Origin: a virus
Taxonomy: Duplodnaviria; Heunggongvirae; Uroviricota; Caudoviricetes
IMG/VR virus record: IMGVR_UViG_2671180699_000001
Coordinates: 1-33,901 of that record
Reading direction: 5' to 3' (one strand)
Length of the DNA: 33,901 nucleotides
A program made the translations under genes and the position numbers. The notes beneath the pieces were generated by a model. It was not told the origin of the DNA. It did not search any database and saw only the letters and a program-made list of their open reading frames with translations. Shown here in pieces: positions 1,285 to 32,610 of this stretch (its first letter is position 1; each line of letters begins with the position of its first letter).

Positions 1285-1299
1285 AGGTTGCTCCGGGCT

Positions 1300-1418
1300 A
1301 TGAAATAGAAAAATGAATCCGTTGAAGCCTGCTTTTTTATACTAAGTTGGCATTATAAAAAAGCATTGCTTATCAATTTGTTGCAACGAACAGGTCACTA
1401 TCAGTCAAAATAAAATCA
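1300..1418. other. attL (B-O-P') lambda-type attachment site; 15-bp core GCTTTTTTATACTAA at about 1331-1345 followed by the P' arm
   Basis: Core and P' arm (…GTTGGCATTATAAAAAAGCATTGCTTATCAATTTGTTGCAACGAACAGGTCACTATCAGTCAAAATAAAATCATTATTTGATTTC) read directly; sits between ybhC and int. Confidence 0.88.
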
Positions 1419-2489
1419 TTATTTGATTTCAATTTTGTCCCACTCCCTGCCTCTGTCATCACGATACTGTGATGCCATGGTGTCCGACTTATGCCCGAGA
1501 AGATGTTGAGCAAACTTATCGCTTATCTGCTTCTCATAGAGTCTTGCAGACAAACTGCGCAACTCGTGAAAGGTAGGCGGATCCCCTTCGAAGGAAAGAC
1601 CTGATGCTTTTCGTGCGCGCATAAAATACCTTGATACTGTGCCGGATGAAAGCGGTTCGCGACGAGTAGATGCAATTATGGTTTCTCCGCCAAGAATCTC
1701 TTTGCATTTATCAAGTGTTTCCTTCATTGATATCCCGAGAGCATCAACATGCAATGTTGTTGGGATGGCAATTTTTACGCCTGTTTTGCTTTGCTCGACA
1801 TAAAGATATCCATCTACGATATCAGACCACTTCATTTCGCATAAATCACCAACTCGTTGCCCGGTAACAACAGCCAGTTCCATTGCAAGTCTGAGCCAAC
1901 ATGGTGATGATTCTGCTGCTTGATAAATTTTCAGGTATTCGTCAGCCGTAAGTCTTGATCTCCTTACCTCTGATTTTGCTGCGCGAGTGGCAGCGACAGG
2001 GTTTGTTGTTATATGGCCTTCAGCTATTGCCTCTCGGAATGCATCGCTCAGTGTTGATCTGATTAACTTGGCTGACGCCGCCTTGCCCTCGTCTATGTAT
2101 CCATTGAGCATTGCCGCAATTTCTTTTGTGGTGATGTCTTCAAGTGGAGCATCAGGCAGACCCCTCCTTATTGCTTTAATTTTGCTCATGTAATTTATGA
2201 GTGTCTTCTGCTTGATTCCTCTGCTGGCCAGGATTTTTTCGTAGCGATCAAGCCATGAATGTAACGTAACGGAATTATCACTGTTGATTCTCGCTGTCAG
2301 AGGCTTGTGTTTGTGTCCTGAAAATAACTCAATGTTGGCCTGTATAGCTTCAGTGATTGCGATTCGCCTGTCTCGGCCTAATCCAAACTCTTTACCCGTC
2401 CTTGGGTCCCTGTAGCAGTAATATCCATTGTTTCTTATATAAAGGTTAGGGGGTAAATCCCGGCGCTCATGACTTCGCCTTCTTCCCAT
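1419..2489 (-). CDS. int: Integrase, tyrosine recombinase (lambda Int type, 356 aa)
   Basis: Protein matches lambda Int along its length as recalled (MGRRRSHERRDLPPNLYIRNNGYY…); adjacent to P' arm. Confidence 0.97.
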   Translation of the reverse strand: MGRRRSHERRDLPPNLYIRNNGYYCYRDPRTGKEFGLGRDRRIAITEAIQANIELFSGHKHKPLTARINSDNSVTLHSWLDRYEKILASRGIKQKTLINYMSKIKAIRRGLPDAPLEDITTKEIAAMLNGYIDEGKAASAKLIRSTLSDAFREAIAEGHITTNPVAATRAAKSEVRRSRLTADEYLKIYQAAESSPCWLRLAMELAVVTGQRVGDLCEMKWSDIVDGYLYVEQSKTGVKIAIPTTLHVDALGISMKETLDKCKEILGGETIIASTRREPLSSGTVSRYFMRARKASGLSFEGDPPTFHELRSLSARLYEKQISDKFAQHLLGHKSDTMASQYRDDRGREWDKIEIK

Positions 2490-2685
2490 TTCTGATCCTC
2501 TTCAAAAGGCTACCTGTTACTGGTCGATTTAAGTCAACCTTTACCGCTGATTCGTGGAACAGATATTCTCTTCCATCCTTAACCGGAGGAGGGAATATCC
2601 TGCATTCGCGCACCCATCGACGAACTGTTTCAAGGCTTCTTGGGCGTCGCTGGCGAGCGTTCCACTCCTGAAGTGTCAAGTACAT
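2467..2685 (-). CDS. xis: Excisionase Xis (72 aa)
   Basis: MYLTLQEWNARQRRPRSLETVRRWVRE… as recalled for lambda Xis; overlaps int start as in lambda. Confidence 0.95.
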   Translation of the reverse strand: MYLTLQEWNARQRRPRSLETVRRWVRECRIFPPPVKDGREYLFHESAVKVDLNRPVTGSLLKRIRNGKKAKS

Positions 2686-2710
2686 CGCAAAGTCTCCGCA
2701 ATTACACGCA

Positions 2711-2733
2711 AGAAAAAACCGCCATCAGGCGGC
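2711..2733 (-). terminator. Rho-independent terminator (minus strand) upstream of xis
   Basis: Stem CCGCC / GGCGG with 4-nt loop, followed on the minus strand by TTTTTTCT. Confidence 0.55.
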
Positions 2734-2905
2734 TTGGTGTTCTTTCAGTTCTTCAATTCGAATATTGGTTACGTCTGCATGTGCTATCTGCGCCCACAGC
2801 ATCCAGTGGTCATAGCAGTCGCTGATGTTCTCGGCTTCGATAACTCTGTTGAATGGTTCTCCATTCTATTCACCTGTGACTCGGAAGTGCATTTATCATC
2901 TCCAT

Positions 2906-2958
2906 AAAAAAACTCGCCGTAGCGAGTTCAGATAAAAGAAATCCTCGTCAGTGCGAGG
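2906..2958 (-). terminator. Two tandem hairpin terminators (minus strand)
   Basis: Stems CTCGC/GCGAG and CCTCG/CGAGG, each followed by a T-rich run on the minus strand. Confidence 0.5.
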
Positions 2959-3132
2959 ATGCTGTTCATTGCTGCTATACACTTTTTTGCTCTCAACGTA
3001 AGCGGTAGCCCATTCTGTTGGGTTGGTGCAGTTGCTTTTAGGAAATGCTATTTACCCCTTAAATGTCGGCTGAAAGAGCTAAAATCCATGCAAAAAATTT
3101 ACGCAATTTTGTGTATTATTGTGCAGTAAGTA

Positions 3133-3735
3133 ATGAGCTATTTTCTGCGCAAAAAATGGATGGTAAATTTGTCCGGGTCAGGAAAAATTTTATGGGCGCT
3201 AAACATGAAAAAAGATTCGTATCCTTATTTGATTTGCATGACAGTTTCAGGGCTGATCTTTATTTTCCTTTTCTTCTGGTGGCGGGCAGATATCTACAGG
3301 GTCACGTTTCTTAATCAGAGTATATCCCACTATTACATTCTGTTTAGCATGGGAATAGCTTTTCTGTTATCTCTGTTTTGGGTTAAGAAGGGGATAGTAA
3401 AACAAAGCGGCTGGAAGAGTCTGTCAGCATACCTTAAGGTTTATGCAGGGATGTGCATATTTGCTGGATTTTTTCTGATTATACCCCTTACGACACTAAC
3501 TTATTTTTTGCCTGGAGAGACATCGTCTTACGTTGCACCGTATCGGTATACTTCCGGTAGTTCAAAAAGTTGTTCTGGAGCTGAGGTGGATGACCCCGAT
3601 CTACATGAGAATATTCGCATTTGCTATCCGTATGGCAATTATGAGTACGATAATATTATCTATGTTGAAAAGAAAATTAATATATTAGGTGCGGTAGTGA
3701 CATATGCACAGACCGCGCGTGATGATACTGAATGA
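3133..3735 (+). CDS. Hypothetical integral membrane protein (3 predicted TM helices plus about 60-aa soluble C-terminal domain); moron gene
   Basis: 200-aa ORF on the strand opposite to the early-left operon; AT-rich; hydrophobic segments LICMTVSGLIFIFLFFWW, ILFSMGIAFLLSLFWV, VYAGMCIFAGFFLIIPLTTL. Confidence 0.55.
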   Translation: MSYFLRKKWMVNLSGSGKILWALNMKKDSYPYLICMTVSGLIFIFLFFWWRADIYRVTFLNQSISHYYILFSMGIAFLLSLFWVKKGIVKQSGWKSLSAYLKVYAGMCIFAGFFLIIPLTTLTYFLPGETSSYVAPYRYTSGSSKSCSGAEVDDPDLHENIRICYPYGNYEYDNIIYVEKKINILGAVVTYAQTARDDTE

Positions 3736-3770
3736 TATAGTATATAGCGGGCAAGTTTTAGTTAATTTAT

Positions 3771-3800
3771 CGAGGTAATATAATTTACCTCGACTCGTTT
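3771..3800 (+). terminator. Hairpin terminator after the membrane-protein gene
   Basis: 8-bp stem CGAGGTAA / TTACCTCG with loop TATAAT, followed by a moderately T-rich tract. Confidence 0.4.
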
Positions 3801-3945
3801 GTTCTGGTATTAATATTTCGCTTTACGACCGATTTTTATCTGATGATATCATGCGGTTTTCATATACTGACTTACTGTCTTTTCTCCGTTAGCGATTTTC
3901 TCCTGCTCAGCGATGATTTTATCTTTGGCTTCTAGTTAATTTCGC

Positions 3946-4167
3946 TCACTTCGAACCTCTCTGTTTACTGATAAGCTCCAGATCTTGCTGGCAACTGGCA
4001 CAAGTCCGACAACCCTGAACGGCCAGTCGTCTTCGTTCATCTATCGGATCGCCACACTCACAACAATGAGTGGCAGATATAGCCTGGTGGTTCAGGCGGC
4101 GCATTTTTATTGCTGTGTTGCGCTGTAATTCTTCAATTTCTGATGCTGAATCAATTATGTCTGCCAT
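3946..4167 (-). CDS. TraR/DksA-family C4 zinc-finger protein (73 aa)
   Basis: CxxC-x17-CxxC (CECGDPIDERRRLAVQGCRTCASC) with TraR-like size and position in the early-left operon. Confidence 0.8.
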   Translation of the reverse strand: MADIIDSASEIEELQRNTAIKMRRLNHQAISATHCCECGDPIDERRRLAVQGCRTCASCQQDLELISKQRGSK

Positions 4168-4265
4168 CTTTCATTAATCCCTGAATTGTTGGTTAATACG
4201 CTTGAGGGTGAATGCGAATAATAAAAAAGGAGCCTGTAGCTCCCTGATGATTTTGCTTTTCATGT

Positions 4266-4481
4266 TCACCGTTCCTTAAAGACGCCGTTCAACATGCCGA
4301 TCGCCAGGCTTAAATGAGTCGGTGTGAATCCCATCAGCGTTACCGTTTCGCGGTGCTTCTTTAGTACGCTACGGCAAATGTCATCGACGTTTTTATCCGG
4401 AAACTGCTGTCTGGCTTTTTTGATTTCAGAATTAGCCTGACGGGCAATGCTGCGAAGGGCGTTTTCTTGCTGAGGTGTCAT
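4266..4481 (-). CDS. Small early-left hypothetical protein (71 aa from internal Met of track ORF)
   Basis: MTPQQENALRSIARQ…; position corresponds to lambda small orfs between ea22 and exo; start uncertain. Confidence 0.45.
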   Translation of the reverse strand: MTPQQENALRSIARQANSEIKKARQQFPDKNVDDICRSVLKKHRETVTLMGFTPTHLSLAIGMLNGVFKER

Positions 4482-4557
4482 TGAACAAGCCCCATGTCGG
4501 CAAGCATAAGCACACAGAATATGAAGCCCGCTGCCAGAAAAATGCATTCAGTGGTTG

Positions 4558-4749
4558 TCATACCTGGTCTCTCTCATCTGCTTCTGCTTTCGCCACCATC
4601 ATTTCCAGCTTTTGTGAAAGGGATGCGGCTAACGTATGAAATTCTTCGTCTGTTTCTACTGGTATTGGCACAAACCTGACTCCAATTTGAGCGAGGCTAT
4701 GTGCCATCTCGATACTCGTTCTTAATTCAACGGGAGATGCTTTGTGCAT
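4558..4749 (-). CDS. Small early-left hypothetical protein (63 aa; lambda orf63-like by size and position)
   Basis: ORF in operon orientation immediately upstream of exo region. Confidence 0.5.
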   Translation of the reverse strand: MHKASPVELRTSIEMAHSLAQIGVRFVPIPVETDEEFHTLAASLSQKLEMMVAKAEADERDQV

Positions 4750-4910
4750 ACAGCTCCCCGTTTATTATTTATCTCCTCAGCCAGCCGCTGGGCTTTCAGC
4801 GGATTTCGGATAACAGAAAGGCCGGGAAATACCCAGCCTCGCTTTGTAACGGAGTAGACGAAAGTGATCGCGCCTACCCGGATATTATCGTGAGGATGCT
4901 TCATTGCCAT
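4722..4910 (-). CDS. Small early-left hypothetical protein (62 aa; lambda orf60a-like by size and position)
   Basis: ORF ends just before exo start. Confidence 0.45.
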
Positions 4911-5581
4911 TGCTCCCCATATACAAAACCAATTTCAGCCAGTGCCTCGTCCATTTTTTCGATGAACTCCGGCACCATCTCGTCAAAACTCGCCATGTAC
5001 TTTTCATTCCGCTCAACCACGACGTAATGCAGGCCTTCACGCTTCATGCGCGGGTCATAGTTGGCAAAGTACCAGGCATCTTTTCGCGTCACCCACATGC
5101 TGTACTGCACCTGGGCCATGTAAGCCGATTTTATTGCCTCGAAACCACCGAGCCGGAATTTCATGAAATCCCGGGAGGTAAACGGGCATTTCAGTTCAAG
5201 GCCGTTGCCGTCACTGCATAAACCATCGGGAGAGCAGGCGGTGCGCATATTTTCGTCGCGATAGATGATCGGGGATTCAGTAATATTCACGCCGGAAGTG
5301 AATTCAAACAGGGTTCTGGCGTCGTTCTCGTACTGTTTTCCCCAGGCCAGCGCCTTAGCATTAACTTCCGGAGCCACACCGGTGCAAACCTCAGCCAGCA
5401 GGGTGTGGAAGTAGGACATTTTCATGTCAGGCCACTTCTTTCCTGAGCGGGGCTTTGCTATCACGTTGTGAACTTCTGAAGCGGTGATGACGCCGAGCCG
5501 TAATTTGTGCCATGCATCATCCCCCTGTTCGACAACTCTCACGTCGATCCCGGTACGCTGCAGGATAATGTCCGGTGTCAT
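4901..5581 (-). CDS. exo: Lambda exonuclease (Red alpha, 226 aa)
   Basis: [15 protein letters not shown]…GEQWQ, as recalled for lambda Exo, same length. Confidence 0.97.
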
Positions 5582-6363
5582 GCTGCCACCTTCTGCTCAG
5601 TGGCTTTCTGTTTAAGGAATCCAAGAGCTTTCACTGCTTCGGCCTGTGTCAGTTCTGACGATGCGCGAATGTCGCGGCGAAATATCTGGGAACAGAGCGG
5701 CAATAAGTCGTCATCCCATGTTTTATCCAGGGCGATCAGCAGAGTGTTAATCTCCTGCATGGTTTCATCGTTAACCGGAGTGATGTCGCGTTCCGGCTGA
5801 CGTTCTGCAGTGTATGCAGTATTTTCGACAATGCGCTCGGCTTCATCCTTGTCATAGATACCAGCAAATCCGAAGGCCAGACGGGCACACTGAATCATGG
5901 CTTTATGCCGTAACATCCGTTTGGGATGCGACTGCCACGGCCCCGTGATTTCTCTGCCTTCGCGGGTTTTGAATGGTTCGCGGCGGCATTCATCCATCCA
6001 CTCGGTAACGCAGATCGGATGATTGCGGTCTTTGCGGTAAATCCGGCATGTGCAGGATTCGTTGTCCTGTTCAAAGTCCATGCCGTCAAACTGCTGGTTT
6101 TCGTTGATGATGCGGGACCAGCCATCAACGCCCACCACCGGAACGATGCCGTTCTGCTTATCAGGGAAGGCGTAAATTTCTTTCGTCCACGGATTAAGAC
6201 CGTACTGGTTGGCGACGATCAGCAATGCGATGAACTGCGCATCGCTGGCATCACCTTTAAATGCCGTCTGGCGAAGAGTGGTGATCAGTTCCTGTGGGTC
6301 GACAGAATCCATGCCGACTCGTTCAGCCAGCTTCCCAGCCAGCGTTGCGAGTGCTGTACTCAT
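5578..6363 (-). CDS. bet: Bet single-strand annealing protein (Red beta, 261 aa)
   Basis: [37 protein letters not shown]…, as recalled for lambda Bet; ATGA overlap with exo. Confidence 0.97.
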
Positions 6364-6368
6364 CCGTT

Positions 6369-6665
6369 TTATACCTCTGAATCAATATCAACCTGGTGGT
6401 GAGCAATGGTTTCAACCATGTACCGGATGTGTTCTGCCATGCGCTCCTGAAACTCAACATCGTCATCAAACGCACGGGTAATGGCTTTTTTGCTGACCCC
6501 GTGGCGTTGCAAATGATCGATGCATAGCGATTCAAACAGGTGCTGGGGCAGGCCTTTTTCCATGTCGTCTGCCAGTTCTGCCTCTTTCTCTTCACGGGCG
6601 ATCTGCTGGTAGTGACGCGCCCAGCTCTGAGCCTCAAGACGATCCTGAATGTAATAAGCGTTCAT
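6369..6665 (-). CDS. gam: Gam, RecBCD inhibitor (98-aa short form)
   Basis: [21 protein letters not shown]…VDIDSEV, as recalled for lambda GamS; an in-frame TAA about 15 codons upstream excludes the long form. Confidence 0.93.
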
Positions 6666-6740
6666 GGCTGAACTCCTGAAAATGGCTGTGAAAATATCGC
6701 CCGCGAAATGCCAGGCTGATTAGGAAAACAGGAAAGGGGA

Positions 6741-7151
6741 TTAGTGATTCAGGCCGTTACCGCGTCCGTCGAGAAAAACTTCTACGAGCAAATCACGGGT
6801 ATAAGTGCGCTCGATGCCGCGATGCAGATAAAGCCGTCCGCGTAAATTAGCTGATGCAGTCCAGGTACCATCTTTGTGTTTGACCAGCATTCCTGGCATG
6901 ACCGCACCGCGATTAACGGTCTGCGTTCCGTAATGTTGATGAACCATAAAAACTCCTGCCCGTAAGCTGGGCTGCTGAACATATAGAGACTTCTGCGCGT
7001 ATTCAGGCGGTGGATGGCCGCCGGTTGTCATAACTAAGCCGCCTCGTTGAAGCGACTGAGGTATAAAGTGTTGTGTTGATTTCAGCTGGTCACACCGACG
7101 TTCACGCGTCCGTTTCACCCCTCGCACTCCCCGAAGCCTGCTGAAATTCAA
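6741..7151 (-). CDS. First ORF of the pL operon, hypothetical; Arg-rich N-terminus (KRTRERR) in the N-antiterminator position, C-terminal part in the kil position
   Basis: Track ORF 136 aa with non-ATG start; internal ATG with GAGG upstream at 7031 would give 96 aa; no confident family assignment. Confidence 0.35.
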
Positions 7152-7169
7152 ACTGCGGATCTAAGCGGT

Positions 7170-7219
7170 CATCGCAACGGTGAAACAGGTGGTTACCGTA
7201 TCGTTGTGTCGTTGCGATG
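7170..7219. repeat. Perfect 10-bp inverted repeat (CATCGCAACG … CGTTGCGATG) with 30-nt spacer in the pL leader
   Basis: Read directly; lies immediately downstream of the putative pL -10 on the minus strand. Confidence 0.7.
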
Positions 7220-7225
7220 AATTTA

Positions 7226-7262
7226 ATTTAAAACTATAGTTGTTTTATCGTCAACAACAAAA
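7226..7262 (-). promoter_or_regulatory. Putative pL promoter with overlapping operator (oL)
   Basis: Minus strand -35 TTGACG, 17-bp spacer, -10 TTAAAT; operator TTGTTGTTGAC-N6-AAAACAAC closely matches the oR site. Confidence 0.45.
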
Positions 7263-7387
7263 GTTGTTTTGTCGGTTGTTTTAAATATAACTGGTTGTAT
7301 TTAGGATGGATTTATTTTGTGACTTGCATCGCATAGCGATAACTGAAGTGAGGTGTGGTGGTTTTTTGGACGGTATGAGTTATGAGG

Positions 7388-7420
7388 GGGAGGAAAAGAA
7401 AACCCGGCGCGGTTGCCGGG
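7388..7420 (-). terminator. Rho-independent terminator after the lipoprotein gene (tImm-like)
   Basis: Stem CCCGGC / GCCGGG with 6-nt loop, followed on the minus strand by TTTTCTTTTCC. Confidence 0.6.
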
Positions 7421-7428
7421 TATGATTA

Positions 7429-7809
7429 TCAGTCAGCCCAACCTGATTTCGAGTTTATTTGGGTTTCTGACATTGTGTATTTCTTAATCGTGTCATCGTT
7501 AAAAAGAATAGTAAGTTCTTTTTTCGTACCGTTCGTTCCATTATGGAATAATCCATAGAATGGAATAAAAGTGGTGCCATTAACTTTTACTTTTGCAAAG
7601 GCGTACTTCCAGATCTCGTTTCCACTGTCAGTATATGAAACAGCATCAGGAGAACCAAAGTAAGATTTAACCTCATTCTTGGTTGTTTTACCTTCCTGAA
7701 GTTTAGACTGGACACTAATTTCAGTTTCATTTTTGAGTTGCTGGTTGCCTGAAGAAGCACACCCAGCCAATACAGATGCCATCATGGCAGCGATTAGGAT
7801 TTTTCTCAT
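7429..7809 (-). CDS. Lipoprotein (126 aa) encoded downstream of cI in the rexAB position
   Basis: Signal peptide with lipobox LAGC (MRKILIAAMMASVLAGCASS); AT-rich; co-oriented with and immediately downstream of the repressor gene. Confidence 0.8.
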   Translation of the reverse strand: MRKILIAAMMASVLAGCASSGNQQLKNETEISVQSKLQEGKTTKNEVKSYFGSPDAVSYTDSGNEIWKYAFAKVKVNGTTFIPFYGLFHNGTNGTKKELTILFNDDTIKKYTMSETQINSKSGWAD

Positions 7810-8038
7810 TTTATGTTTCCATTCATTATAATCAGAAACATCTTAACATAATGATTCGAAATAAAAACCGCTACGAGATAGGGGGACATTTTGCTGACAG
7901 TAGCAACAAATCTCAGCTAACAACGAGAATATTTACTGAAATATGCAAACAGATTTGGCGTTCTTATAGAGAATTTAGTGCAATATCTAATCCGAGTGGT
8001 ATAAACCTTAACCTTCGCTCCCTTAAGTCGTAGATAAA

Positions 8039-8728
8039 TTAACCATGCTTCCTGTACGTCTGCGGCATGCTTCCAATGACCTTACCGAATATGAACACCC
8101 GGTTCATCTCGTCTTTCTCGATCGGGTCCCACGGCGAGTAGCTCTTGTTATCAGAGATAACCAGCAGCTTATCCTTCATCATTTGAAGACGTTTTACATG
8201 GGCAGTGTCGTCGTACAGAAACGCATAGATGCCATCACCGTCGAAAGATTTAACAGTGATATCAACGAACAGCAGGTCACCTGGTTCGATCGTCCCTGAC
8301 ATGCTGTCACCTCGCACGTTAATGATGCGGATATTTTCCGCCTTCCTGCCATCGAACATGTGACGAGCATCGTCAAACGAGTACTCAACCGAGCGTAGAA
8401 CTTCTACAAACTCACGGTTGATTACACCTGGCCCGGCACTGACTTCTATATCAAGAACGTCAATTTTGAAGTATTTGGAATGGCTGACAGTTGATTGTAT
8501 TGGTTGCACTGTACTGTCTGACATATTTCCAACGCCAGAAGATAACCATTCTGCGCGCACACCCAAAGCGTTCGCGATCTCCACGATTTTAGTTGTTTGG
8601 TTAGCTTTCCCTGTTTCGATTTTCTGAATAGCAGCCTGGCTAACCCCGACCAAATCCCCAAGCGCCTTTTGTGTAAGGCCTCGCGCTAATCTGGCTTCTT
8701 TAAGTCTTTCTGAGAGTGTTGTTTTCAT
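8039..8728 (-). CDS. cI: CI-type prophage repressor (HTH_XRE N-terminal domain plus S24 LexA-like peptidase domain, 229 aa)
   Basis: HTH (LTQKALGDLVGVSQAAIQKIE), Ala-Gly cleavage site (SAGPG), catalytic Ser (GDSMSG) and Lys (HVKRL). Confidence 0.93.
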   Translation of the reverse strand: MKTTLSERLKEARLARGLTQKALGDLVGVSQAAIQKIETGKANQTTKIVEIANALGVRAEWLSSGVGNMSDSTVQPIQSTVSHSKYFKIDVLDIEVSAGPGVINREFVEVLRSVEYSFDDARHMFDGRKAENIRIINVRGDSMSGTIEPGDLLFVDITVKSFDGDGIYAFLYDDTAHVKRLQMMKDKLLVISDNKSYSPWDPIEKDEMNRVFIFGKVIGSMPQTYRKHG

Positions 8729-8767
8729 AGATCAAATGTACAACCAAGGTTTTATTTCATCAAACGA

Positions 8768-8803
8768 AAATGGTTGTTGACTAAAAACAACCATAGTTTT
8801 AAT
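8768..8803 (+). promoter_or_regulatory. oR operator with pR promoter; divergent cI/cro control region
   Basis: Inverted repeat ATGGTTGTT-N7-AACAACCAT overlapping -35 TTGACT, 17-bp spacer, -10 TAATCT; GGAGG Shine-Dalgarno before cro. Confidence 0.6.
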
Positions 8804-8832
8804 CTTTATTCGGATTAACCACGGAGGTTGTT

Positions 8833-9063
8833 ATGAACCCAGCAATCAAAACAGCGATCAATATCGTTGGTTCACAAAAGAAACTAGGCGATGCCTGCGA
8901 AGTTTCACAGCAGGCCGTCTATAAGTGGCTTCACAACAAAGCAAAGGTATCCCCTGAACATGTCGGCAGCATTGTTACGGCTACTGGTGGAGTTGTGAAG
9001 GCATACCAGATTCGCCCGGATCTTCCGAAGTTGTTTCCACACACCGAAAAGAACGCAGCTTAA
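8833..9063 (+). CDS. cro: Cro-like HTH regulator (76 aa)
   Basis: Small HTH protein (…CEVSQQAVYKWL…) divergent from the repressor. Confidence 0.8.
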   Translation: MNPAIKTAINIVGSQKKLGDACEVSQQAVYKWLHNKAKVSPEHVGSIVTATGGVVKAYQIRPDLPKLFPHTEKNAA

Positions 9064-9075
9064 ATTTCCATTTCA

Positions 9076-9088
9076 CGCTCTTTAACAA
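9076..9088 (+). promoter_or_regulatory. boxA-like antitermination element (CGCTCTTTAACAA) downstream of cro (nutR position)
   Basis: Near-identity to the boxA consensus (rrn boxA GCTCTTTAACAA; lambda CGCTCTTA); no obvious boxB hairpin follows. Confidence 0.45.
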
Positions 9089-9132
9089 TAAGCAATCAAC
9101 TTAACAGTCAATTCAAACTAAAGGAGTCAATT

Positions 9133-9672
9133 ATGCAACCACTTACATACCAACAGACTAGCGGATTTATTCCGACTGCGGTGATAAATCGTTCTCAAAC
9201 AAAACAAGCTCCAGGCCACGAAAAAATCCGTGATGCCGTCCGCGCCTGGTCGGCTGTAGATAATCAGGATGTCGTTGCCGCACTCATTGTGAATGAGTAT
9301 CGGGAGCAGGGCGACGGCACCATCGATTTCCCTGATGATGTCAGCCGTGCACGCCAGAAGCTGTTCCGCTTCCTCGATAACAAATTCGATTCTGAAAAAT
9401 ACCGAAATAACGTGCGTGAACTGACCCCGGCAATTCTGGCGGTACTACCGCTGGAATATCGCGGTTACCTGGTTGAGCAGGATAGCTTCATGACTCGGTT
9501 GGCTGAAATGGAAAAGGAACTCAGTGAGGCAAAACAGGCTGTCATTCTCAACGCACCACGCCACCAGAAACTGAAGGAAATGAGTGAAGGTATTGTGTCG
9601 ATGTTTCGTGTGGACCCGGATCTGGCTGGTCCATTAATGGCGATGGTGACCACCATGCTGGGGGCAATATGA
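9133..9672 (+). CDS. YdaT-family regulator (CII functional analogue position, 179 aa)
   Basis: Motif LTPAILAVLPLEYRGYL resembles the YdaT family as recalled; sits between cro and O. Confidence 0.65.
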   Translation: MQPLTYQQTSGFIPTAVINRSQTKQAPGHEKIRDAVRAWSAVDNQDVVAALIVNEYREQGDGTIDFPDDVSRARQKLFRFLDNKFDSEKYRNNVRELTPAILAVLPLEYRGYLVEQDSFMTRLAEMEKELSEAKQAVILNAPRHQKLKEMSEGIVSMFRVDPDLAGPLMAMVTTMLGAI

Positions 9673-9758
9673 CAGGTTCAGAAATGGCGAAAGTCGGTCT
9701 GCGGGAACAGAACCGACTTTCAGGTGCAAATCGTAACACACTCATTGCGGGAGGAATT

Positions 9759-10688
9759 ATGGCAAACACTGCTGAGATATTCAATTTTCCAGTGCCGGAT
9801 GCGGCACAAAAGGAGCCGCGCGTGGCAGATCTCGATGATGGTTATACGCGCATTGCAAATGAGTTGCTGGAAGCTGTGATGCTGGCCGGATTAACACAGC
9901 ACCAGCTTCTGGTCTTCCTGGCTGTCATGCGCAAAACATATGGCTTTAATAAAAAACTGGATTGGGTGAGCAACGAGCAACTTTCCGAGTTGACCGGGAT
10001 ATTGCCGCACAAGTGTTCTGCTGCAAAAAGTGTTCTGGTAAAGCGTGGGATTTTTATTCAGAGCGGGCGGAATATCGGCATTAATAATGTGGTCAGTGAA
10101 TGGTCAACATTACCCGAATCAGGTAAGAAAAATAAAGTTTACCTGAAAGAGGTAAATTTACCTGAATCAGGTAAGAAAAGTTTACCCAAATCAGGTAAAG
10201 GCACTTACCCGAATCAGGTAAACACAAAATACAAACTAACAAAAGACAATATAAAACCTTTTTCGTCCGAGAATTCTGGCGAATCCTCTGACCAACCAGA
10301 AAACGATCTTCCTGTGGAGAAACCAGATGCTGCAATTCAGAGCGGCAGCAGGTGGGGGACAGCAGAAGACCTGACCGCCGCAGAGTGGATGTTTGACATG
10401 GTGAAGACCATCGCGCCATCAGCCAGAAAACCGAATTTTGCAGGGTGGGCTAACGATATCCGCCTGATGCGTGAACGTGACGGCCGTAACCACCGCGACA
10501 TGTGCGTGCTGTTCCGCTGGGCATGCCAGGACAACTTCTGGTCCGGTAACGTGCTAAGTCCGGCCAAACTCCGCGACAAGTGGACCCAACTCGAAATCAA
10601 CCGTAACAAGCAACAGGCTGGCGTGATAGCCGGAAAATCAAAACTCGACCTGACAAACACTGACTGGATTTACGGGGTGGATTTATGA
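9759..10688 (+). CDS. O: Replication initiator O (lambda O type); ORF opens at 9669 but the GGGAGGA-preceded ATG at 9759 is the likely start
   Basis: …VADLDDGY…L…KTYG…NK…SEWS… resembles lambda O as recalled; iterons embedded in the gene. Confidence 0.92.
   Translation: MANTAEIFNFPVPDAAQKEPRVADLDDGYTRIANELLEAVMLAGLTQHQLLVFLAVMRKTYGFNKKLDWVSNEQLSELTGILPHKCSAAKSVLVKRGIFIQSGRNIGINNVVSEWSTLPESGKKNKVYLKEVNLPESGKKSLPKSGKGTYPNQVNTKYKLTKDNIKPFSSENSGESSDQPENDLPVEKPDAAIQSGSRWGTAEDLTAAEWMFDMVKTIAPSARKPNFAGWANDIRLMRERDGRNHRDMCVLFRWACQDNFWSGNVLSPAKLRDKWTQLEINRNKQQAGVIAGKSKLDLTNTDWIYGVDL
10110..10223 (+). repeat. Origin iterons: five about 18-bp direct repeats (TTACCYRAATCAGGTAA, one degenerate) followed by an AT-rich tract to about 10262
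   Basis: Repeats read directly inside O, as in ori-lambda (which has four). Confidence 0.85.
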
Positions 10689-11386
10689 AAAACATCGCCG
10701 CACAGATGGTTAACTTTGACCGTGAGCAGATGCGCCGGATCGCCAACAACATGCCGGAACAGTACGACGAAAAGCCGCAGGTACAACAGGTAGCGCAGAT
10801 CATCAATGGTGTGTTCAGCCAGTTACTGGCAACTTTCCCGGCGAGCCTGGCTAACCGGGACCAGAACGAACTGAACGAAATCCGCCGCCAGTGGGTTCTG
10901 GCTTTCCGGGAAAACGGGATCACCACGATGGAACAGGTTAACGCAGGAATGCGCGTAGCCCGTCGGCAGAATCGACCATTCCTGCCATCACCCGGGCAGT
11001 TTGTTGCCTGGTGCCGGGAAGAAGCATCCGTTACCGCCGGGCTGCCAAACGCCAGCGAGCTGGTTGATATGGTTTACGAGTATTGCCGGAAACGTGGCCT
11101 GTATCCAGATGCAGAGTCTTATCCGTGGAAATCAAACGCGCACTACTGGCTGGTTACCAACCTGTATCAGAACATGCGGGCCAATGCGCTGACTGATGCG
11201 GAATTACGGCGCAAGGCTGCCGATGAACTGGCCTGTATGACAGCGCGAATTAACCGTGGTGAGGCGATACCTGAACCAGTAAAACAACTTCCTGTCATGG
11301 GCGGGAGACCGCTTAATCGTGTTCAGGCTCTGGCGAAGATCGCAGAAATCAAAGCGAAGTTTGGGCTGAAAGGAGCAAGTGTATGA
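10685..11386 (+). CDS. P: Replication protein P (DnaB helicase loader, 233 aa)
   Basis: Same length and position as lambda P; sequence recognised as lambda P type. Confidence 0.93.
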   Translation: MKNIAAQMVNFDREQMRRIANNMPEQYDEKPQVQQVAQIINGVFSQLLATFPASLANRDQNELNEIRRQWVLAFRENGITTMEQVNAGMRVARRQNRPFLPSPGQFVAWCREEASVTAGLPNASELVDMVYEYCRKRGLYPDAESYPWKSNAHYWLVTNLYQNMRANALTDAELRRKAADELACMTARINRGEAIPEPVKQLPVMGGRPLNRVQALAKIAEIKAKFGLKGASV

Positions 11387-11670
11387 CGGGCAAAGAGGCA
11401 ATTATTCATTACCTGGGGACTCATAAGAACTTCTGTGCGCAGGACGTTGCCGCGGTAACAGGCGCAACCGTAACCAGCATAAATCAGGCTGCGGCTAAAA
11501 TGGCGCGGTCAGGAATCCTGGTCGTTGATGGTAAGGTCTGGCGAACGGTGTATTACCGGTTCGCTACCAGAGAAGAACGGGAAGGAAAGGTGAGCACGAA
11601 TCTGATTTTTAAGGAGTGTCGTCAAAGTGCCGCGATGAAGCGGGTGTTGGCTTTATATGGAAGAGAGTAG
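11383..11670 (+). CDS. ren: Ren (95 aa)
   Basis: Same size and position as lambda ren, directly after P. Confidence 0.85.
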   Translation: MTGKEAIIHYLGTHKNFCAQDVAAVTGATVTSINQAAAKMARSGILVVDGKVWRTVYYRFATREEREGKVSTNLIFKECRQSAAMKRVLALYGRE

Positions 11671-11734
11671 GTATGAGCAATTATTGTTACTAATTTTAGT
11701 TTTACGACATTCGTGATAACTAAATAATTGATGT

Positions 11735-11989
11735 GTGGAACTGAATTATAAAGGGGATGATGTTTTGGGAAATAAAGAAAATATCGATTGTAAGCACACA
11801 AGAAGCTCATGCTATAAAAACAAGCAGATGAAAGATGTTATTTATATTACATTGCCTAAACTCACTGAAGAAGAAGTAGAAATTTTTAAGGGACCAATGC
11901 ATAAAGCATTGCTTGCAGGGATAAATGTTACAAAAAAGGCAGTTTCTGATGCCCTGCTAAACAAAGGGATAAAAGTTGAATTTAAATAG
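11735..11989 (+). CDS. Small hypothetical ORF in the ren-nin insertion (start uncertain; GTG, TTG or ATG giving 53-84 aa)
   Basis: AT-rich, Lys-rich; convergent with the 472-aa gene; weak start signals. Confidence 0.3.
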   Translation: MELNYKGDDVLGNKENIDCKHTRSSCYKNKQMKDVIYITLPKLTEEEVEIFKGPMHKALLAGINVTKKAVSDALLNKGIKVEFK

Positions 11990-12004
11990 AGTAATTCAGT
12001 GGCA

Positions 12005-12032
12005 ACAATAGCACTCATTTGTGAGTGCTATT
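12005..12032. terminator. Bidirectional hairpin terminator between convergent genes (12-bp perfect stem CAATAGCACTCA / TGAGTGCTATTG)
   Basis: Read directly; sits in the 50-bp gap between the two convergent ORFs. Confidence 0.6.
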
Positions 12033-12040
12033 GAAATTTA

Positions 12041-13459
12041 TTAGAAAATAATGTTTGCTATATCCGAGATAGCATTTAAAGAACCTCTGTGGTCACTTCC
12101 TGTTTTAGGTAAAATATAGGAATATCGAGGGTCTTCATTATATGTTAACTTCCAGTGTTTTCCATCGCTTGACGCACTGAAACCTAAGTCCTTTAAATTT
12201 CTTTGTGTTGCGCTATCCATGCTTCTGTAACCTGTTAAAGTCCTTTTAAGTAATTGGCGGCGACTCTCGGTTTCTTTATTGTATTCATTATTGGCAATTA
12301 GGGATGATAAGATATGGTAGCTTCTACCAAATTCATTTTTATTTTTTATGGCAGTTTTTAGTGCGTCAATAATTATATTTTTGATTTCTCCATCAAAAAA
12401 ATCAGTCTCTTCACCAGCATTAAGCACAATGCTTCCTTGGGCTGAAGCTTGTGATTGAAGAGTGCGTACTCTGTGCTCTAAAGAGGAGATCTTATGCTTA
12501 AGATCTTCTATTTGGTCATCTTTCGCAACATTATCGGCTTCGTAAAGCGCCATCAGTTCGCGTGTGTATTCTCCTCTTTCTTTGAGTGAGTTAATAGAGT
12601 CTTTCGTTTTTCTGGTTTGTATCTCACTCCATCCACTATCTGAGACAGGAGCCATTGTAGTCGTAGCTCTTACAACATCATCAAATAACTCATCTTCAAA
12701 TTCTTTTGCGGTTTTCTCACCACGGCGATAAAAACTGATATTTTGACCCCGTGGCCAATAGATACCAACAGCACCAGCATAGGCATTTTTAGCATTTGTC
12801 TCATTTTTTAGCTTAATAGAAAATAGTCTATTGCTAGGCTCAATTAATACATGTGCTAATCCGCATACCTTTCTTGCAAGGCGTTCTGGGATGATATTGT
12901 GAGCATGTTCATTAAAAAAATACTTGGAGCTAACGTATATTATTGGTAGTCTGTTGTCAGTTTCACCATTTATAACTTTAGCTGCTATATTTAAATGTTC
13001 ATCAGTATCATCTAAGGAATGAGGTTCGACTGACACCTTGAAAATATCATCAAGACCACCAGAAAATTTATCAATCAATCTCATAACAACTAATGGTTTC
13101 TTAGGTTGCGGGGCTAGATAAGCTGCATCTTGGCTTACAACGCTAGATTCCACCTGAATCCACATGGTATCAGTTTTGAGATTTTTATTAATTGAAATAT
13201 CTGTTACCCATTTGTGTGGCTCAGATATTTTCGAATACCTAAAACAGCCTAAACTAGTATCTTTGTTTTTATAAGTTATTATATCAATTCTTTCATTTTT
13301 AGACTCTATGAAGTACTCCTCGCTTTTATAATCACATACTAATTGTGCTGGAATAAAAGTTGTATGTGGTGAGTCGTTTACCCAAGAAAAACATTCATTA
13401 AAGATCTCAGCTAGAGATGTGGAGTTTGAAACATAAAAACCAGTTGAGAAATATTTCAT
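12041..13459 (-). CDS. Orphan 472-aa protein in the ren-nin insertion; function unknown, candidate anti-phage/abortive-infection protein
   Basis: Long uninterrupted ORF on the strand opposite to the replication/nin operon; low GC; central coiled-coil (EDLKHKISSLEHRVRTLQSQ); no TM helices, no Walker A seen. Confidence 0.75.
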   Translation of the reverse strand: MKYFSTGFYVSNSTSLAEIFNECFSWVNDSPHTTFIPAQLVCDYKSEEYFIESKNERIDIITYKNKDTSLGCFRYSKISEPHKWVTDISINKNLKTDTMWIQVESSVVSQDAAYLAPQPKKPLVVMRLIDKFSGGLDDIFKVSVEPHSLDDTDEHLNIAAKVINGETDNRLPIIYVSSKYFFNEHAHNIIPERLARKVCGLAHVLIEPSNRLFSIKLKNETNAKNAYAGAVGIYWPRGQNISFYRRGEKTAKEFEDELFDDVVRATTTMAPVSDSGWSEIQTRKTKDSINSLKERGEYTRELMALYEADNVAKDDQIEDLKHKISSLEHRVRTLQSQASAQGSIVLNAGEETDFFDGEIKNIIIDALKTAIKNKNEFGRSYHILSSLIANNEYNKETESRRQLLKRTLTGYRSMDSATQRNLKDLGFSASSDGKHWKLTYNEDPRYSYILPKTGSDHRGSLNAISDIANIIF

Positions 13460-13734
13460 GAAATTTCCTTATTAAAAATGAGATTAATCTCATTGGCTAT
13501 GATAATTGTTACCCTCCTTTGGATCTAGTGTTCATTTGACATAAGAACCTATTGATTCATCATAATCAACTCGCCATAATCATGTCATCGGAGCCTGAAC
13601 AACTCCGGTGACTTCTGCGCTTTGAGGGGACTCAAAGTGCAAACGACAATCAGAACACCTTTCAACCAGTCACAGATGCAGAAATGCACCTGCGATATCT
13701 TGCATCCAACGTTTGACCTCTGCGGAGGTGAAGC

Positions 13735-14190
13735 GTGAACCTCCCACAAGATGGTATCAAATTGCATCGCGGTAACTTCACCGCTATCGGTCGGCAGATC
13801 CAGCCTTATCTGGAGGACGGCAAATGCTTTCGCATGGTGCTTAAACCGTGGCGCGAGAGACGCAGTCTTTCCCAGAATGCACTCAGCCACATGTGGTACA
13901 GCGAAATCAGTGAATACCTCATCAGCAAGGGTAAAACGTTCGCCACTCCAGCTTGGGTAAAAGATGCTCTCAAACACACATATCTCGGTTATGAAACCAA
14001 AGACCTGGTTGATGTCGTAACCGGTGATATCACCACTATCCAGTCGTTACGCCATACCTCCGATCTTGATACCGGAGAGATGTATGTCTTCCTGTGTAAG
14101 GTTGAAGCCTGGGCGGTGAATATTGGCTGCCACCTGACTATTCCGCAGAGCTGCGAGTTCCAGCTGCTCCGCGACAAGCAGGAGGCGTAA
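13735..14190 (+). CDS. ybcN: YbcN/NinB-family protein (151 aa, GTG start per ORF track)
   Basis: SLSQN…W motif typical of the NinB family; DLP12-type nin gene order. Confidence 0.8.
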
Positions 14191-14360
14191 TGGCTACACC
14201 GCTTATTCGTGTCATGAACGGACACATCTACAGAGTACCAGATCGTCGTAAGCGTAAACCGGAGCTGAAGCCTTCCGAAATACCAACACTGCTCGGATAT
14301 ACCGCCAGCCTGGTTGATAAAAAATGGTTGCGACTGGCAGCAAGGAGGAATCATGGCTGA
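14190..14360 (+). CDS. ninE: NinE (56 aa)
   Basis: [61 protein letters not shown] overlap with ybcN; below the track size cutoff. Confidence 0.8.
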   Translation: MATPLIRVMNGHIYRVPDRRKRKPELKPSEIPTLLGYTASLVDKKWLRLAARRNHG

Positions 14361-14643
14361 TTTGAGAAAAGCAGCGCGTAGTCGGGAATGCCAGGTAAGA
14401 ATCCCTGGCGTATGTAATGGCAACCCTGAAACGTCTGTACTGGCACATATCCGGCTGACTGGATTGTGCGGCACCGGTACCAAACCGCCAGACCTGATTG
14501 CCACCATTGCATGTTCTGCCTGCCACGACGAAATCGACCGCCGCACACATTTTGTCGATGCTGCATATGCAAAAGAATGCGCGCTGGAAGGTATGGCGAG
14601 AACACAGGTTATCTGGCTGAAAGAGGGGGTTATTAAGGCGTGA
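14353..14643 (+). CDS. ybcO: YbcO-like DUF1364 Cys-rich protein (start at AGGAGG-preceded ATG 14353)
   Basis: Cys motifs ([11 protein letters not shown] … CSACHDEID); DLP12 nin order. Confidence 0.8.
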
Positions 14644-15002
14644 ATACCTACAGCATCACATTACCCTGGCCTCCGAGCAATAATCGCTATTACCGCCATA
14701 ATCGCGGGCGCACGCACGTCAGCGCAGAGGGGCAGGCATACCGCGATAACGTCGCCCGAATCATTAAAAACGCAATGCTGGATATCGGCCTGGCTATGCC
14801 TGTGAAAATCCGCATTGAGTGCCACATGCCGGATCGCCGTCGCCGTGACCTGGATAATCTGCAAAAAGCCGCTTTTGACGCACTCACTAAAGCAGGTTTC
14901 TGGCTGGATGATGCTCAGGTCGTTGATTACCGCGTTGTGAAGATGCCTGTTACCAAAGGTGGGAGGCTGGAACTGACCATCACCGAAATGGGGAATGAAT
15001 GA
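14640..15002 (+). CDS. rusA: RusA Holliday-junction resolvase (120 aa)
   Basis: [37 protein letters not shown]… recognised as E. coli RusA. Confidence 0.95.
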
Positions 15003-15139
15003 TGTTTGAGTTTTATATGGCAGAACGTCTTCGCCACCGCTGGGGGCGTCTGCGCTTATATCGTTTCCCCGGTTCTGTTTTGACCGATTACCGAATACTG
15101 AAGAATTACGCCAAAACCCTGACAGGAGCAGGAGTATGA
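14999..15139 (+). CDS. ylcG: YlcG-like small protein (46 aa)
   Basis: [46 protein letters not shown]; overlaps rusA stop. Confidence 0.7.
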
Positions 15140-15224
15140 AGTCAGAGATAACAATCAACTAATACTGTTTTGTTGATTTTTGCTTGTAATTGGCGTTCTG
15201 GTCTGATTTTTGTGGAGTAAGTTG

Positions 15225-15265
15225 ATGCGTGATATTCAGATGGTTCTTGAGCGTTGGGGAGCGTG
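15225..15265 (+). CDS. Q antiterminator (phage 82 / QuuD type), 5' fragment only, truncated by assembly gap
   Basis: MRDIQMVLERWGAW then N-run. Confidence 0.65.
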
Positions 15266-15275
15266 NNNNNNNNNN
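15266..15275. other. Assembly gap (10 N)
   Basis: N run in sequence. Confidence 0.99.
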
Positions 15276-15468
15276 GCCACCGACGGCATTGCGGTCAGAA
15301 AAAGATGATATTGAATCGCCCATTGAAAAACTGGAGGGCAGCGTCGCTGATCTGAATAAAAAATTGTCGGTGCTGATTCCTTCTGAAGATGAAAAAAAAC
15401 GCCGCGATGAGCAGTTTGCGGCGTTTTACGATTATTGCATTGAAGTTACTCTCGCAGGAATTTTGTGA
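15276..15468 (+). CDS. 3' fragment of an unidentified gene continuing from the gap (…SPIEKLEGSVADLNKKLSVLIPSEDEKKRRDEQFAAFYDYCIEVTLAGIL)
   Basis: Open frame runs from the gap edge; overlaps the minus-strand ORF below, so only one of the two is likely real. Confidence 0.25.
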
Positions 15469-15708
15469 AGATTTTTGAGGAGGGTAAATCTCTTCAGTAA
15501 GCTTAATGGCGGACGCTGCAATTAATTCAGGAAGGTCCGCAAGGTCATCTGTCAGTGGATATGATGAAAAATCGGCGGCAGTTCTGTTAAGAAGCGCTTT
15601 AACTAATTCCTTTTCCTTCTCCGGCAACAAGTTGATTAGAGCTACGACTGCTTGCCTGAGTGCGATTAAATCAGCAAAAGTTTGTTTAGGTAGATTTGTG
15701 TAATCCAT
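15295..15708 (-). CDS. Hypothetical protein upstream of and divergent from the lysozyme gene
   Basis: ATG with GAGG 6 nt upstream; N-terminal 100 aa look protein-like, C-terminal part overlaps the plus-strand fragment. Confidence 0.35.
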   Translation of the reverse strand: MDYTNLPKQTFADLIALRQAVVALINLLPEKEKELVKALLNRTAADFSSYPLTDDLADLPELIAASAIKLTEEIYPPQKSSQNSCESNFNAIIVKRRKLLIAAFFFIFRRNQHRQFFIQISDAALQFFNGRFNIIFF

Positions 15709-15821
15709 AGTCGCCTCTGTGTTTATCAGATTGACATCCTCCTCCCGCCAGTGCCCATCACTGGTGAGGTAAGATTTAACATATCCGGGGATTTGAAGCC
15801 GATAAATCCTGATAAATATCC

Positions 15822-16849
<1,028 letters not shown>

Positions 16850-17212
16850 ATTAATATTAAATCGGATTATTTTTAGCGCTGAATGTGAAATTTAAATAAA
16901 AAGGACTCTTCCATGAGTCAAAATCCTTGAAATCTTAAGGGTAAGATAAAAGGTCATTAGACAGAATGACACGTTTTATTAATAAATAAAGCTATTGTTT
17001 CATTCGTGTGTTTTTCTTTACAAAAGTAATCCTTGCTATGGTTGGTTAATCATGCGTTAATGGTGTTCTGGTTTGTTACAAAATTATCTGAAGCAGTCAT
17101 TGTTATAATTTTATTATTTGTACCTCTTGAGATTTCCTTGTTGGTTTTTCTCTCTGATATTTTTTTTCGGACCATTCTGCCCAAGGGCTAACTTCTTCAA
17201 AAGGTAATAATG

Positions 17213-17425
17213 ATGTCTAACAAAATGACTGGTTTAGTGAAATGGTTTAACCCTGAAAAAGGTTTTGGTTTCATCACGCCGAAAGATGGTAGCAAAGATG
17301 TGTTTGTCCATTTCTCAGCTATTCAGAGCAACGATTTCAAAACGTTAACTGAGAATCAGGAAGTCGAATTTGGTATTGAGAACGGACCTAAAGGCCCCGC
17401 GGCTGTTCATGTTGTGGCACTTTGA
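17213..17425 (+). CDS. cspI: Cold-shock protein (CspA family; CspI-like)
   Basis: [38 protein letters not shown]… with RNP1/RNP2 motifs. Confidence 0.93.
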
Positions 17426-17630
17426 GGTAGAAAATATTACAAACCATATTCACTTTAGATGCCCGTGTTGCCATGGTTCTCAGTATAGAACATCATCTTT
17501 TGATGTTTCTGACAGGAATCCTTTCGGGGCAAAATGTATCTTTTGTAAATCAATGATGATTACATTTGATAATATTTCACAATACTTAAATGTTAGCCGT
17601 CTATCGTTAGATTTAAGAAAGTGAAAATGA

Positions 17631-32242: not shown

Positions 32243-32600
32243 ATGCAGGATATTCCACAGGAAACACATCATGAGACGACACGCCTCACTCAGTCAGCCC
32301 AGGTGGTGCTCTGGGAAATCGATCTGACAGTGGTCGGTGGAGAACGTTATTTTTTCTGTAATGAGCAGAACGAAAAAGGTGAGCCGATCACCTGGCAGGG
32401 GCGACAGTATCAGGCGTATCCCATTCAGGGGACGGGATTTGAACTGAACGGCAAGGGCAGTGCTGCCCGTCCGACACTGACGGTTTCTAACCTGCACGGC
32501 ATGGTCACCGCGATGGCGGAAGACCTGCAGAGTCTGGTCGGAGGAACGGTGGTCCGGCGTAAGGTTTACGCCCGTTTTCTGGATGCGGTGAACTTCGTCA
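32243..32600 (+). CDS. L: Minor tail protein L, 5' portion truncated by assembly gap
   Basis: Lambda gpL-like N-terminus; frame runs into the N-run. Confidence 0.88.
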
Positions 32601-32610
32601 NNNNNNNNNN
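32601..32610. other. Assembly gap (10 N)
   Basis: N run in sequence. Confidence 0.99.

Follow-up and report, generated by a model that had tools for sequence, protein, structure and literature searches.

An apparently holin-less lysis cassette in an Escherichia coli prophage record is produced by a 10-N contig spacer

The lysis cassette in IMG/VR record IMGVR_UViG_2671180699_000001 appears to lack a holin gene because a contig break lies upstream of its lysozyme gene. The "holin-less" cassette is an artifact of assembly and not a biological feature, and the underlying biology is an ordinary, already known lysis cassette of the phage 21/Qin type. The whole stretch of DNA that was analyzed (33,901 nucleotides, positions 1 to 33,901 of the record; hereafter, the window) is very probably a piece of a pseudo-scaffold, in which the early arm of one E. 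coli prophage has been placed across a spacer from the late arm of another. The most likely origin of the right flank is the late arm of a separate, Qin-like prophage. The features on which this reading rests are as follows.

14999 to 15139, plus strand: ylcG, the last complete gene of the left contig (annotated as YlcG in E. coli genomes that are 100% identical; PF26818 in sister loci)
15208 to 15265, no strand: terminal 58 nt of the left contig, part of a 100-nt stretch that recurs exactly at the Qin-like Q locus
15225 to 15265, plus strand: 5′ fragment of a Q antiterminator gene, 13 codons and 2 nt by direct reading
15266 to 15275, no strand: 10-N contig-concatenation spacer; in sister assemblies, unrelated chromosomal DNA lies across the same spacer from these ends
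15277 to 15468, plus strand: terminal (3′) segment of a long ydfR-family gene, continuing the ydfR frame of three related loci (L001, L010, and L261)
15295 to 15708, minus strand: small antisense gene (phrog_2572), converging on ydfR and diverging from the lysozyme gene
15449 to 15450, no strand: 2-bp CT insertion within a CTCTC run, located by alignment
15822 to 16355, plus strand: lysozyme of the rrrQ/phage 21 R type, a predicted SAR endolysin (PF00959)
16352 to 16849, plus strand: Rz-like i-spanin of the rzpQ type, DUF2514 (PF10721; phrog_312, Rz-like spanin)
16545 to 16799, plus strand: embedded Rz1-like o-spanin in the +1 frame, with lipobox LTSC (phrog_11621, Rz-like spanin)

Direct reading of the window bore out the description of this region in the initial annotation, namely, a Q-like gene cut after 13 codons by 10 Ns, no holin ahead of the lysozyme, and a plus-strand fragment overlapping a divergent minus-strand open reading frame (ORF) with a ribosome binding site. 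The Q-like frame begins with the ATG at 15225 and encodes MRDIQMVLERWGA in 13 complete codons, followed by 2 nt of a Trp codon and then the Ns; these codons are all that the window holds of the Q domain, which is ∼118 residues long at full length (PF06530). The same fragment, without differences, opens quuD (127 aa) in strain LH13-b and the gene for the 125-aa Q (PF06530) of a sister Qin-like locus. The ORF listing of the window contains no holin-like ORF between 15276 and the lysozyme start at 15822, and a PF04971 pinholin gene of ∼71 aa upstream of the endolysin is absent from the window. The plus-strand frame extends without interruption from the contig edge (15277) to a stop codon at 15466 to 15468 and overlaps the minus-strand ORF (15708 to 15295, 137 aa), which carries a GAGG motif ∼7 nt ahead of its ATG. 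Scans for consensus promoters and terminators across 15100 to 15900 returned nothing exceeding the shuffled expectation.

The nature of the spacer was established from assemblies related to the one that contains the window. An exact-protein look-up with the 137-aa product of the minus-strand ORF identified 10 NCBI assemblies belonging to one series (GCA_0014129xx to GCA_0014137xx; WGS prefixes JRRI to JRSJ), whose multi-megabase "contigs" contain runs of 10 Ns. One of them, JRRY01000079.1, is 100% identical to window positions 5295 to 25708, Ns included, and is accordingly either the record from which the window derives or an identical copy. In the other nine sister assemblies, the right contig is present at 100% identity over 10,433 nt, with varied continuations upstream. 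It is cut at exactly the same base in three of these, followed by 10 Ns and then by unrelated DNA (an IS66/MmeI island; an IS1 end with ycjM and the psp operon; a tuf fragment with bfr and gsp genes). In four others it extends 58 to 64 nt further into ydfR before unrelated chromosomal genes appear, and in one it covers ydfR and reaches approximately codon 50 of the holin gene before pmrD and icd follow. The ninth, JRRI01000005.1 (151 kb), has no break. The left contig was traced by a second look-up, for which a 472-aa protein encoded on it served as the query. Four sister assemblies share 13.2 kb of the left contig at 100% identity, with its end at 15207, 15265, 15269, or 15271; its partners across the 10 Ns are the asnB/nag, yhdP/mre, nan, and gltP/nrf regions. 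Because the same contig ends are joined to unrelated DNA in different sisters, the 10-N runs are concatenation spacers without linkage information, and the spacer in the window says nothing about adjacency or gap size. The earlier view of the two flanks as one locus, with a gap that could be closed by PCR, is not supported, given these many unrelated chromosomal partners.

A second, identical run of 10 Ns is located at 32601 to 32610. It cuts a lambda-L-like minor tail gene, L, which starts at 32243, and its far side is the interior of a chromosomal pseudogene of the alpha-amylase family that adjoins glaH, lhgO, and gabDTP in other E. coli strains. This join agrees with the reading of the 10-N runs as concatenation spacers, and the prophage therefore has no real right end in the window. 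The L-gene sequence flanking the spacer is very common in IMG/VR. For this assembly series, prophage calls that cross spacers can thus be chimeras, either of two prophages or of a prophage and the chromosome, and no biological meaning should be attached to seeming gene losses at the spacers (the holin, Q, and the tail genes K, I, and J).

The path upstream of the lysozyme gene could be followed in the unbroken contig, which was found twice, as NCBI JRRI01000005.1 (L261) and as IMG/VR UViG_2700989272_000005 (L010). These records share 13,162 nt at 100% identity and may represent a single assembly, which would then be the only one with the unbroken arrangement. The gene order on this path is hok, ydfU (DUF968), Q, a lipocalin gene on the opposite strand, a ybgA-like gene (2-thiouracil desulfurase/DUF1722), an IS1-family element, a pinholin gene, long ydfR, the antisense ORF, lysozyme, and Rz/Rz1. 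The pinholin is a 71-aa protein with the dual start MKSM that matches PF04971, "Bacteriophage P21 holin S" (E value, 3.5e-35); its stop codon lies 4 nt before a 173-aa ydfR-family gene that runs into window position 15276. Between the equivalents of 15265 and 15276, the sister path contains 4,230 nt that are missing from the window (5752 to 9981 in the reverse complement of L261). The presence of this pinholin in the unbroken sister means that the expected gene exists in the lineage and that its absence from the window is an artifact. The initial annotation had considered the holin, Q, the late promoter, and the qut site to be probably inside the gap. That the holin is missing by artifact was correct, an S21-type pinholin being found upstream in a contig 100% identical to the right flank. 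The rest of a Q gene (125 aa, matching PF06530 positions 1 to 118) lies further upstream in the sister, followed by sites that resemble a promoter and a terminator by consensus match only: a weak promoter-like site that overlaps the 3′ end of this gene and, ∼100 nt beyond its stop codon, a terminator-like hairpin accompanied by a T run. The supposition that the right flank belongs with the left is opposed by the same contig, which ties the right flank to a Qin-type early region (hok, ydfU), not to rusA-ylcG.

The IS1-family element (InsA-like, 90 aa; L010 positions 5482 to 6192) lies between the ybgA-like gene and the pinholin gene and separates the Q/late-promoter region from the lysis genes. 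Strain CFSAN061763 has a helix-turn-helix gene at the corresponding place. The element may contribute to the assembly breaks, and it possibly causes polarity on late transcription.

The left contig has a different affiliation. The window opens inside ybhC, and positions 1 to 2685 also include a lambda-type integrase gene (1419 to 2489, minus strand) and an excisionase gene (2467 to 2685, minus strand), which identify the left contig as a prophage at the lambda attachment site. Over ≥80% of its length, the contig (1 to 15265) resembles lambda-attachment-site prophages in 278 complete genomes. The gene order ahead of the Q start is ybcN, ninE, ybcO, rusA, ylcG, and the flank from 13700 to 15265 matches strain LH13-b at 100% identity and the lambda-attachment-site prophage of strain JS01 at 98%. 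In the best matches to the left contig, Q is quuD (127 aa) and is followed by a porin gene, essD, rrrD, and rzpD. This DLP12-type late region (quuD, an nmpC/ompC-like porin gene, essD, rrrD, rzpD) follows the matching flank in both LH13-b and JS01 and is not in the window. The 472-aa protein used for the second look-up is encoded between ren and ybcN (12041 to 13459, minus strand) and has no Pfam hit on record; the ORF is listed in 888 blocks of the collection, all contexts that were read are lambdoid prophages, and it appears as an accessory gene.

The positions of the contig ends are those of repeats. The exact block shared with the Qin-like Q locus extends from −58 to +42 relative to the left-contig end, the sister contig has no exact match to a left-contig suffix longer than 58 nt, and the left-contig ends in all four sisters fall within −58 to +6 nt of 15265, inside the 100-nt repeat. 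The right contig starts at codons for ...KTPP, the point at which the long YdfR departs from the common short forms, which end in ...KTPPES. With one end in the Q repeat and the other at the YdfR divergence, both are repeat boundaries, as expected for short-read contigs. That one of the breaks falls within Q implies that the genome carries two or more Q loci.

Searches of larger collections were made with the right flank, with the exact end of the left contig, and with the sequence spanning the gap. Qin-like prophages match the right flank at 99.8% identity, as do the isolated phages PhiR63_1 and 2H10 (99.3% over 15276 to 15821); in these prophages and phages the order is Q, an accessory block, holin, the long YdfR gene, the antisense ORF, rrrQ, rzpQ, and cspI. 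For the gap-spanning query, no single place was covered at ≥80% in 5,426 complete E. coli genomes, and the GTDB set, with one genome per species, yielded no match to the pattern. Among the best matches listed, all but one cover only the right arm and the ∼84-bp Q start. The exception, MB07152 (55% coverage), has a similar early arm linked to an essD-rrrD cassette and not to the ydfR-rrrQ segment. Of 120 IMG/VR loci tested that carry the exact left-contig end, 4 have an rrrQ-type lysozyme gene (∼89% identity) 3.0 to 3.7 kb downstream, and none contains the segment 15276 to 15750. This test neither proves nor rules out a recombinant prophage.

Taken as two prophages, the window would have arisen through the end-to-end joining of short-read contigs by 10-N spacers of fixed length. 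Contig 1 (1 to 15265) would be a lambdoid early arm at the lambda attachment site that stops 58 nt into the 100-nt Q repeat, and contig 2 (15276 to 32600) would be a Qin-like late arm that begins where the long ydfR departs from the short copies. The true upstream sequence of contig 2 in the window strain would then be the 4,230-nt path of the unbroken sister, from ydfU and Q through the lipocalin, ybgA-like, and IS1 genes to the pinholin and ydfR, a Qin-like arrangement that we infer from the sister assemblies. The order and orientation of the contigs, from the Q start to the 3′ end of ydfR, the lysozyme gene, and the structural genes, tell against this reading, being those of a single lambdoid prophage and unlikely for a random join; such a layout may have been favored if the window was picked as a prophage-like region. 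The same agreement with the lambdoid map fits a true adjacency, in which one recombinant prophage occupies the lambda attachment site and the Ns represent ∼4.2 kb that short reads could not assemble. In that case, Q would be followed by the lipocalin/ybgA-like/IS1 block, the pinholin, and ydfR, which would have remained unassembled since the Q start, IS1, and holin/ydfR are repeated elsewhere. Strain EFF60 has a natural mosaic in which this rusA-ylcG type is combined with the 125-aa Q, the lipocalin, and the ybgA-like gene; together with the four IMG/VR loci that have the exact Q start and an rrrQ-type lysozyme, it makes a single recombinant prophage biologically possible. We nevertheless consider a recombinant prophage unlikely. 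The sole unbroken sister attaches the 100%-identical right arm to hok, ydfU, and Q, at least 12 sister assemblies place unrelated DNA next to these two contig ends, the break inside Q implies a second Q copy, and the join is absent from the 5,426 complete E. coli genomes.

A genuine loss of the holin would require a deletion of most of Q, the late promoter, the holin gene, and the 5′ part of ydfR in a defective prophage, with the Ns standing for a few bases. Deletions and rearrangements are frequent in cryptic prophages such as Qin and DLP12, and the window itself holds nothing that contradicts such an event. Against it, the ydfR frame remains open as far as the contig edge, six sisters continue upstream into the DUF1327 part of ydfR (four by 58 to 64 nt, one into the holin gene, and one completely), the left contig goes 4 to 6 nt further into Q in two sisters, and both contig ends coincide with repeat boundaries. 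The deletion was rejected on the continuation of sisters into ydfR and the holin and on the repeat-boundary ends, and we regard it as barely credible. Under every reading other than a true deletion, the pinholin is missing from the assembly only.

The two overlapping ORFs, for which a check for homologs had been proposed, both have them: the plus-strand frame belongs to long YdfR and the minus-strand ORF to a phage family of 86-aa proteins. The ydfR fragment in the window corresponds to the C-terminal extension beyond DUF1327. In full-length YdfR relatives, DUF1327 (PF07041) occupies residues 1 to 112 and the extension follows in frame. The 63-aa fragment, which falls wholly beyond the domain, has no Pfam hit above threshold. 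The profile matched is phrog_2091 (positions 1 to 168 of 183), and the gene is, on the basis of its full-length relatives, a YdfR/DUF1327 member, though the fragment does not itself show the domain. Long YdfR variants range from 171 to 296 aa and differ by in-frame indels, which marks the plus-strand frame as coding. The antisense ORF matches phrog_2572 over 86/86 profile positions (E value, 1.2e-53). Family members are ∼86 aa in all close E. coli homologs and 89 to 93 aa, with 40 to 47% identity, in distant ones, and substitutions relative to one relative number 3, 2, and 11 at codon positions 1, 2, and 3. Judged by such comparisons of sequence, the minus-strand ORF is a real gene. An AlphaFold2 model suggests three helices with moderate confidence (pLDDT, 72; pTM, 0.43). 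A Pfam scan of the ORF was empty at an E value of ≤0.1, and the label "DUF1823 containing" used by the annotators of PhiR12 was rejected on this basis.

The size of the overlap is explained by the CT insertion at 15449 to 15450. In relatives, ydfR and the antisense gene are convergent and overlap by only 53 nt, and the insertion sits inside this overlap. It destroys the TAA stop codon of the antisense gene so that 51 more codons are read, yielding 137 aa compared with 86 aa, and this read-through is the reason that the overlap seemed large and puzzling. In YdfR, a frameshift replaces the last 15 residues, with their usual ending RRNFVKIFEEGKSLQ, by 5 (LAGIL). None of the 5,426 complete E. coli genomes contains the insertion (best match, 99.2%), and the variant has no match in the GTDB set of one genome per species. 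Three IMG/VR contigs carry the insertion, as does every NCBI sister assembly identified with the 137-aa ORF (at least 10), and it is therefore a real lineage marker and not a random error.

The lysozyme was identified as a PF00959 protein, containing the phage lysozyme domain of glycoside hydrolase family 24 (E value, 5e-25), and matches the phage 21 lysozyme structures 3HDE and 3HDF (E value, ∼4e-17) and RrrD (4ZPU). Residues E35, D44, and T50 align column for column with EGVSYIPYKDIVGVWT of 3HDE and display the catalytic pattern of Glu, 8 residues, Asp/Cys, 5 residues, and Thr. Within residues 1 to 24, K4 and R6 are followed by an uncharged stretch of Ala, Ser, and Leu where R21 has its SAR domain. 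We take this stretch to be a predicted SAR anchor from what is known of R21. The suggestion in the initial annotation that the lysozyme is a SAR endolysin is in line with its homology to the phage 21 SAR endolysin. Downstream, the i-spanin gene has an o-spanin lipoprotein gene embedded in its +1 frame, the arrangement of a two-component spanin, and PGAP assigns the names rrrQ and rzpQ to genes that are 99.8% identical.

In phage 21, the membrane potential is dissipated by the pinholin, the tethered endolysin comes free and turns active, and lysis is completed by the spanins. By homology, the intact cassette would function in the same manner. Q-dependent late transcription would express the pinholin, which would depolarize the membrane; depolarization would release the membrane-tethered SAR endolysin, which would become active, and the Rz/Rz1 spanins would then disrupt the outer membrane.

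The lysozyme, Rz/Rz1, and cspI-like genes of the window are like those of phage 21 (S21, R21, Rz/Rz1) and of the K-12 prophage Qin (essQ, ydfR, rrrQ, rzpQ/rzoQ, cspI), and the sister locus likewise has a PF04971 holin gene with an MKSM start directly upstream, followed by a DUF1327 gene. The window differs from these systems in that the holin and most of Q are missing through the contig break, that ydfR is of the long form (173 to 183 aa here and 103 aa in K-12 Qin), and that an extra antisense gene of the 86-aa family lies between ydfR and the lysozyme gene. The same module of holin S, YdfR/DUF1327, antisense ORF, lysozyme R, and Rz is found in the temperate Escherichia phages PhiR63_1, 2H10, and PhiR12_1 (91% identity for the last), in which the CT insertion is absent and the proteins are 183 aa (YdfR) and 86 aa (antisense ORF).

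The long YdfR gene and the antisense gene are wedged between the pinholin and SAR endolysin genes in viable phages. K-12 YdfR (103 aa) is without an established function and was reported to bind the N-terminal (catalytic) half of RNase E and possibly RNA (PMC13232886). It might be speculated, with a low probability of being right, that the long YdfR, in which DUF1327 is joined to a coiled-coil-like extension, and the 86-aa antisense protein constitute an accessory module for lysis timing or for targeting host RNA. If so, the CT insertion, which alters both proteins at once, could change the function of the module.

Two further elements were observed near the cassette. A hairpin at 15741 to 15762 (CGCCAGTG, loop CCCAT, CACTGGTG) is located in the intergenic region from which the antisense ORF and the lysozyme gene diverge, with no T run after it. 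In relatives that are 91% identical, a perfect 7-bp stem is retained at this position (GCCAGTG, loop CCCAC, CACTGGC) despite flanking substitutions. Just downstream of the lysis cassette, the Rfam cspA thermoregulator was detected at 17055 to 17471 (110 bits; gathering score, 78), spanning the leader and coding region of the cspI-like cold-shock gene (17210 to 17425), as in Qin.
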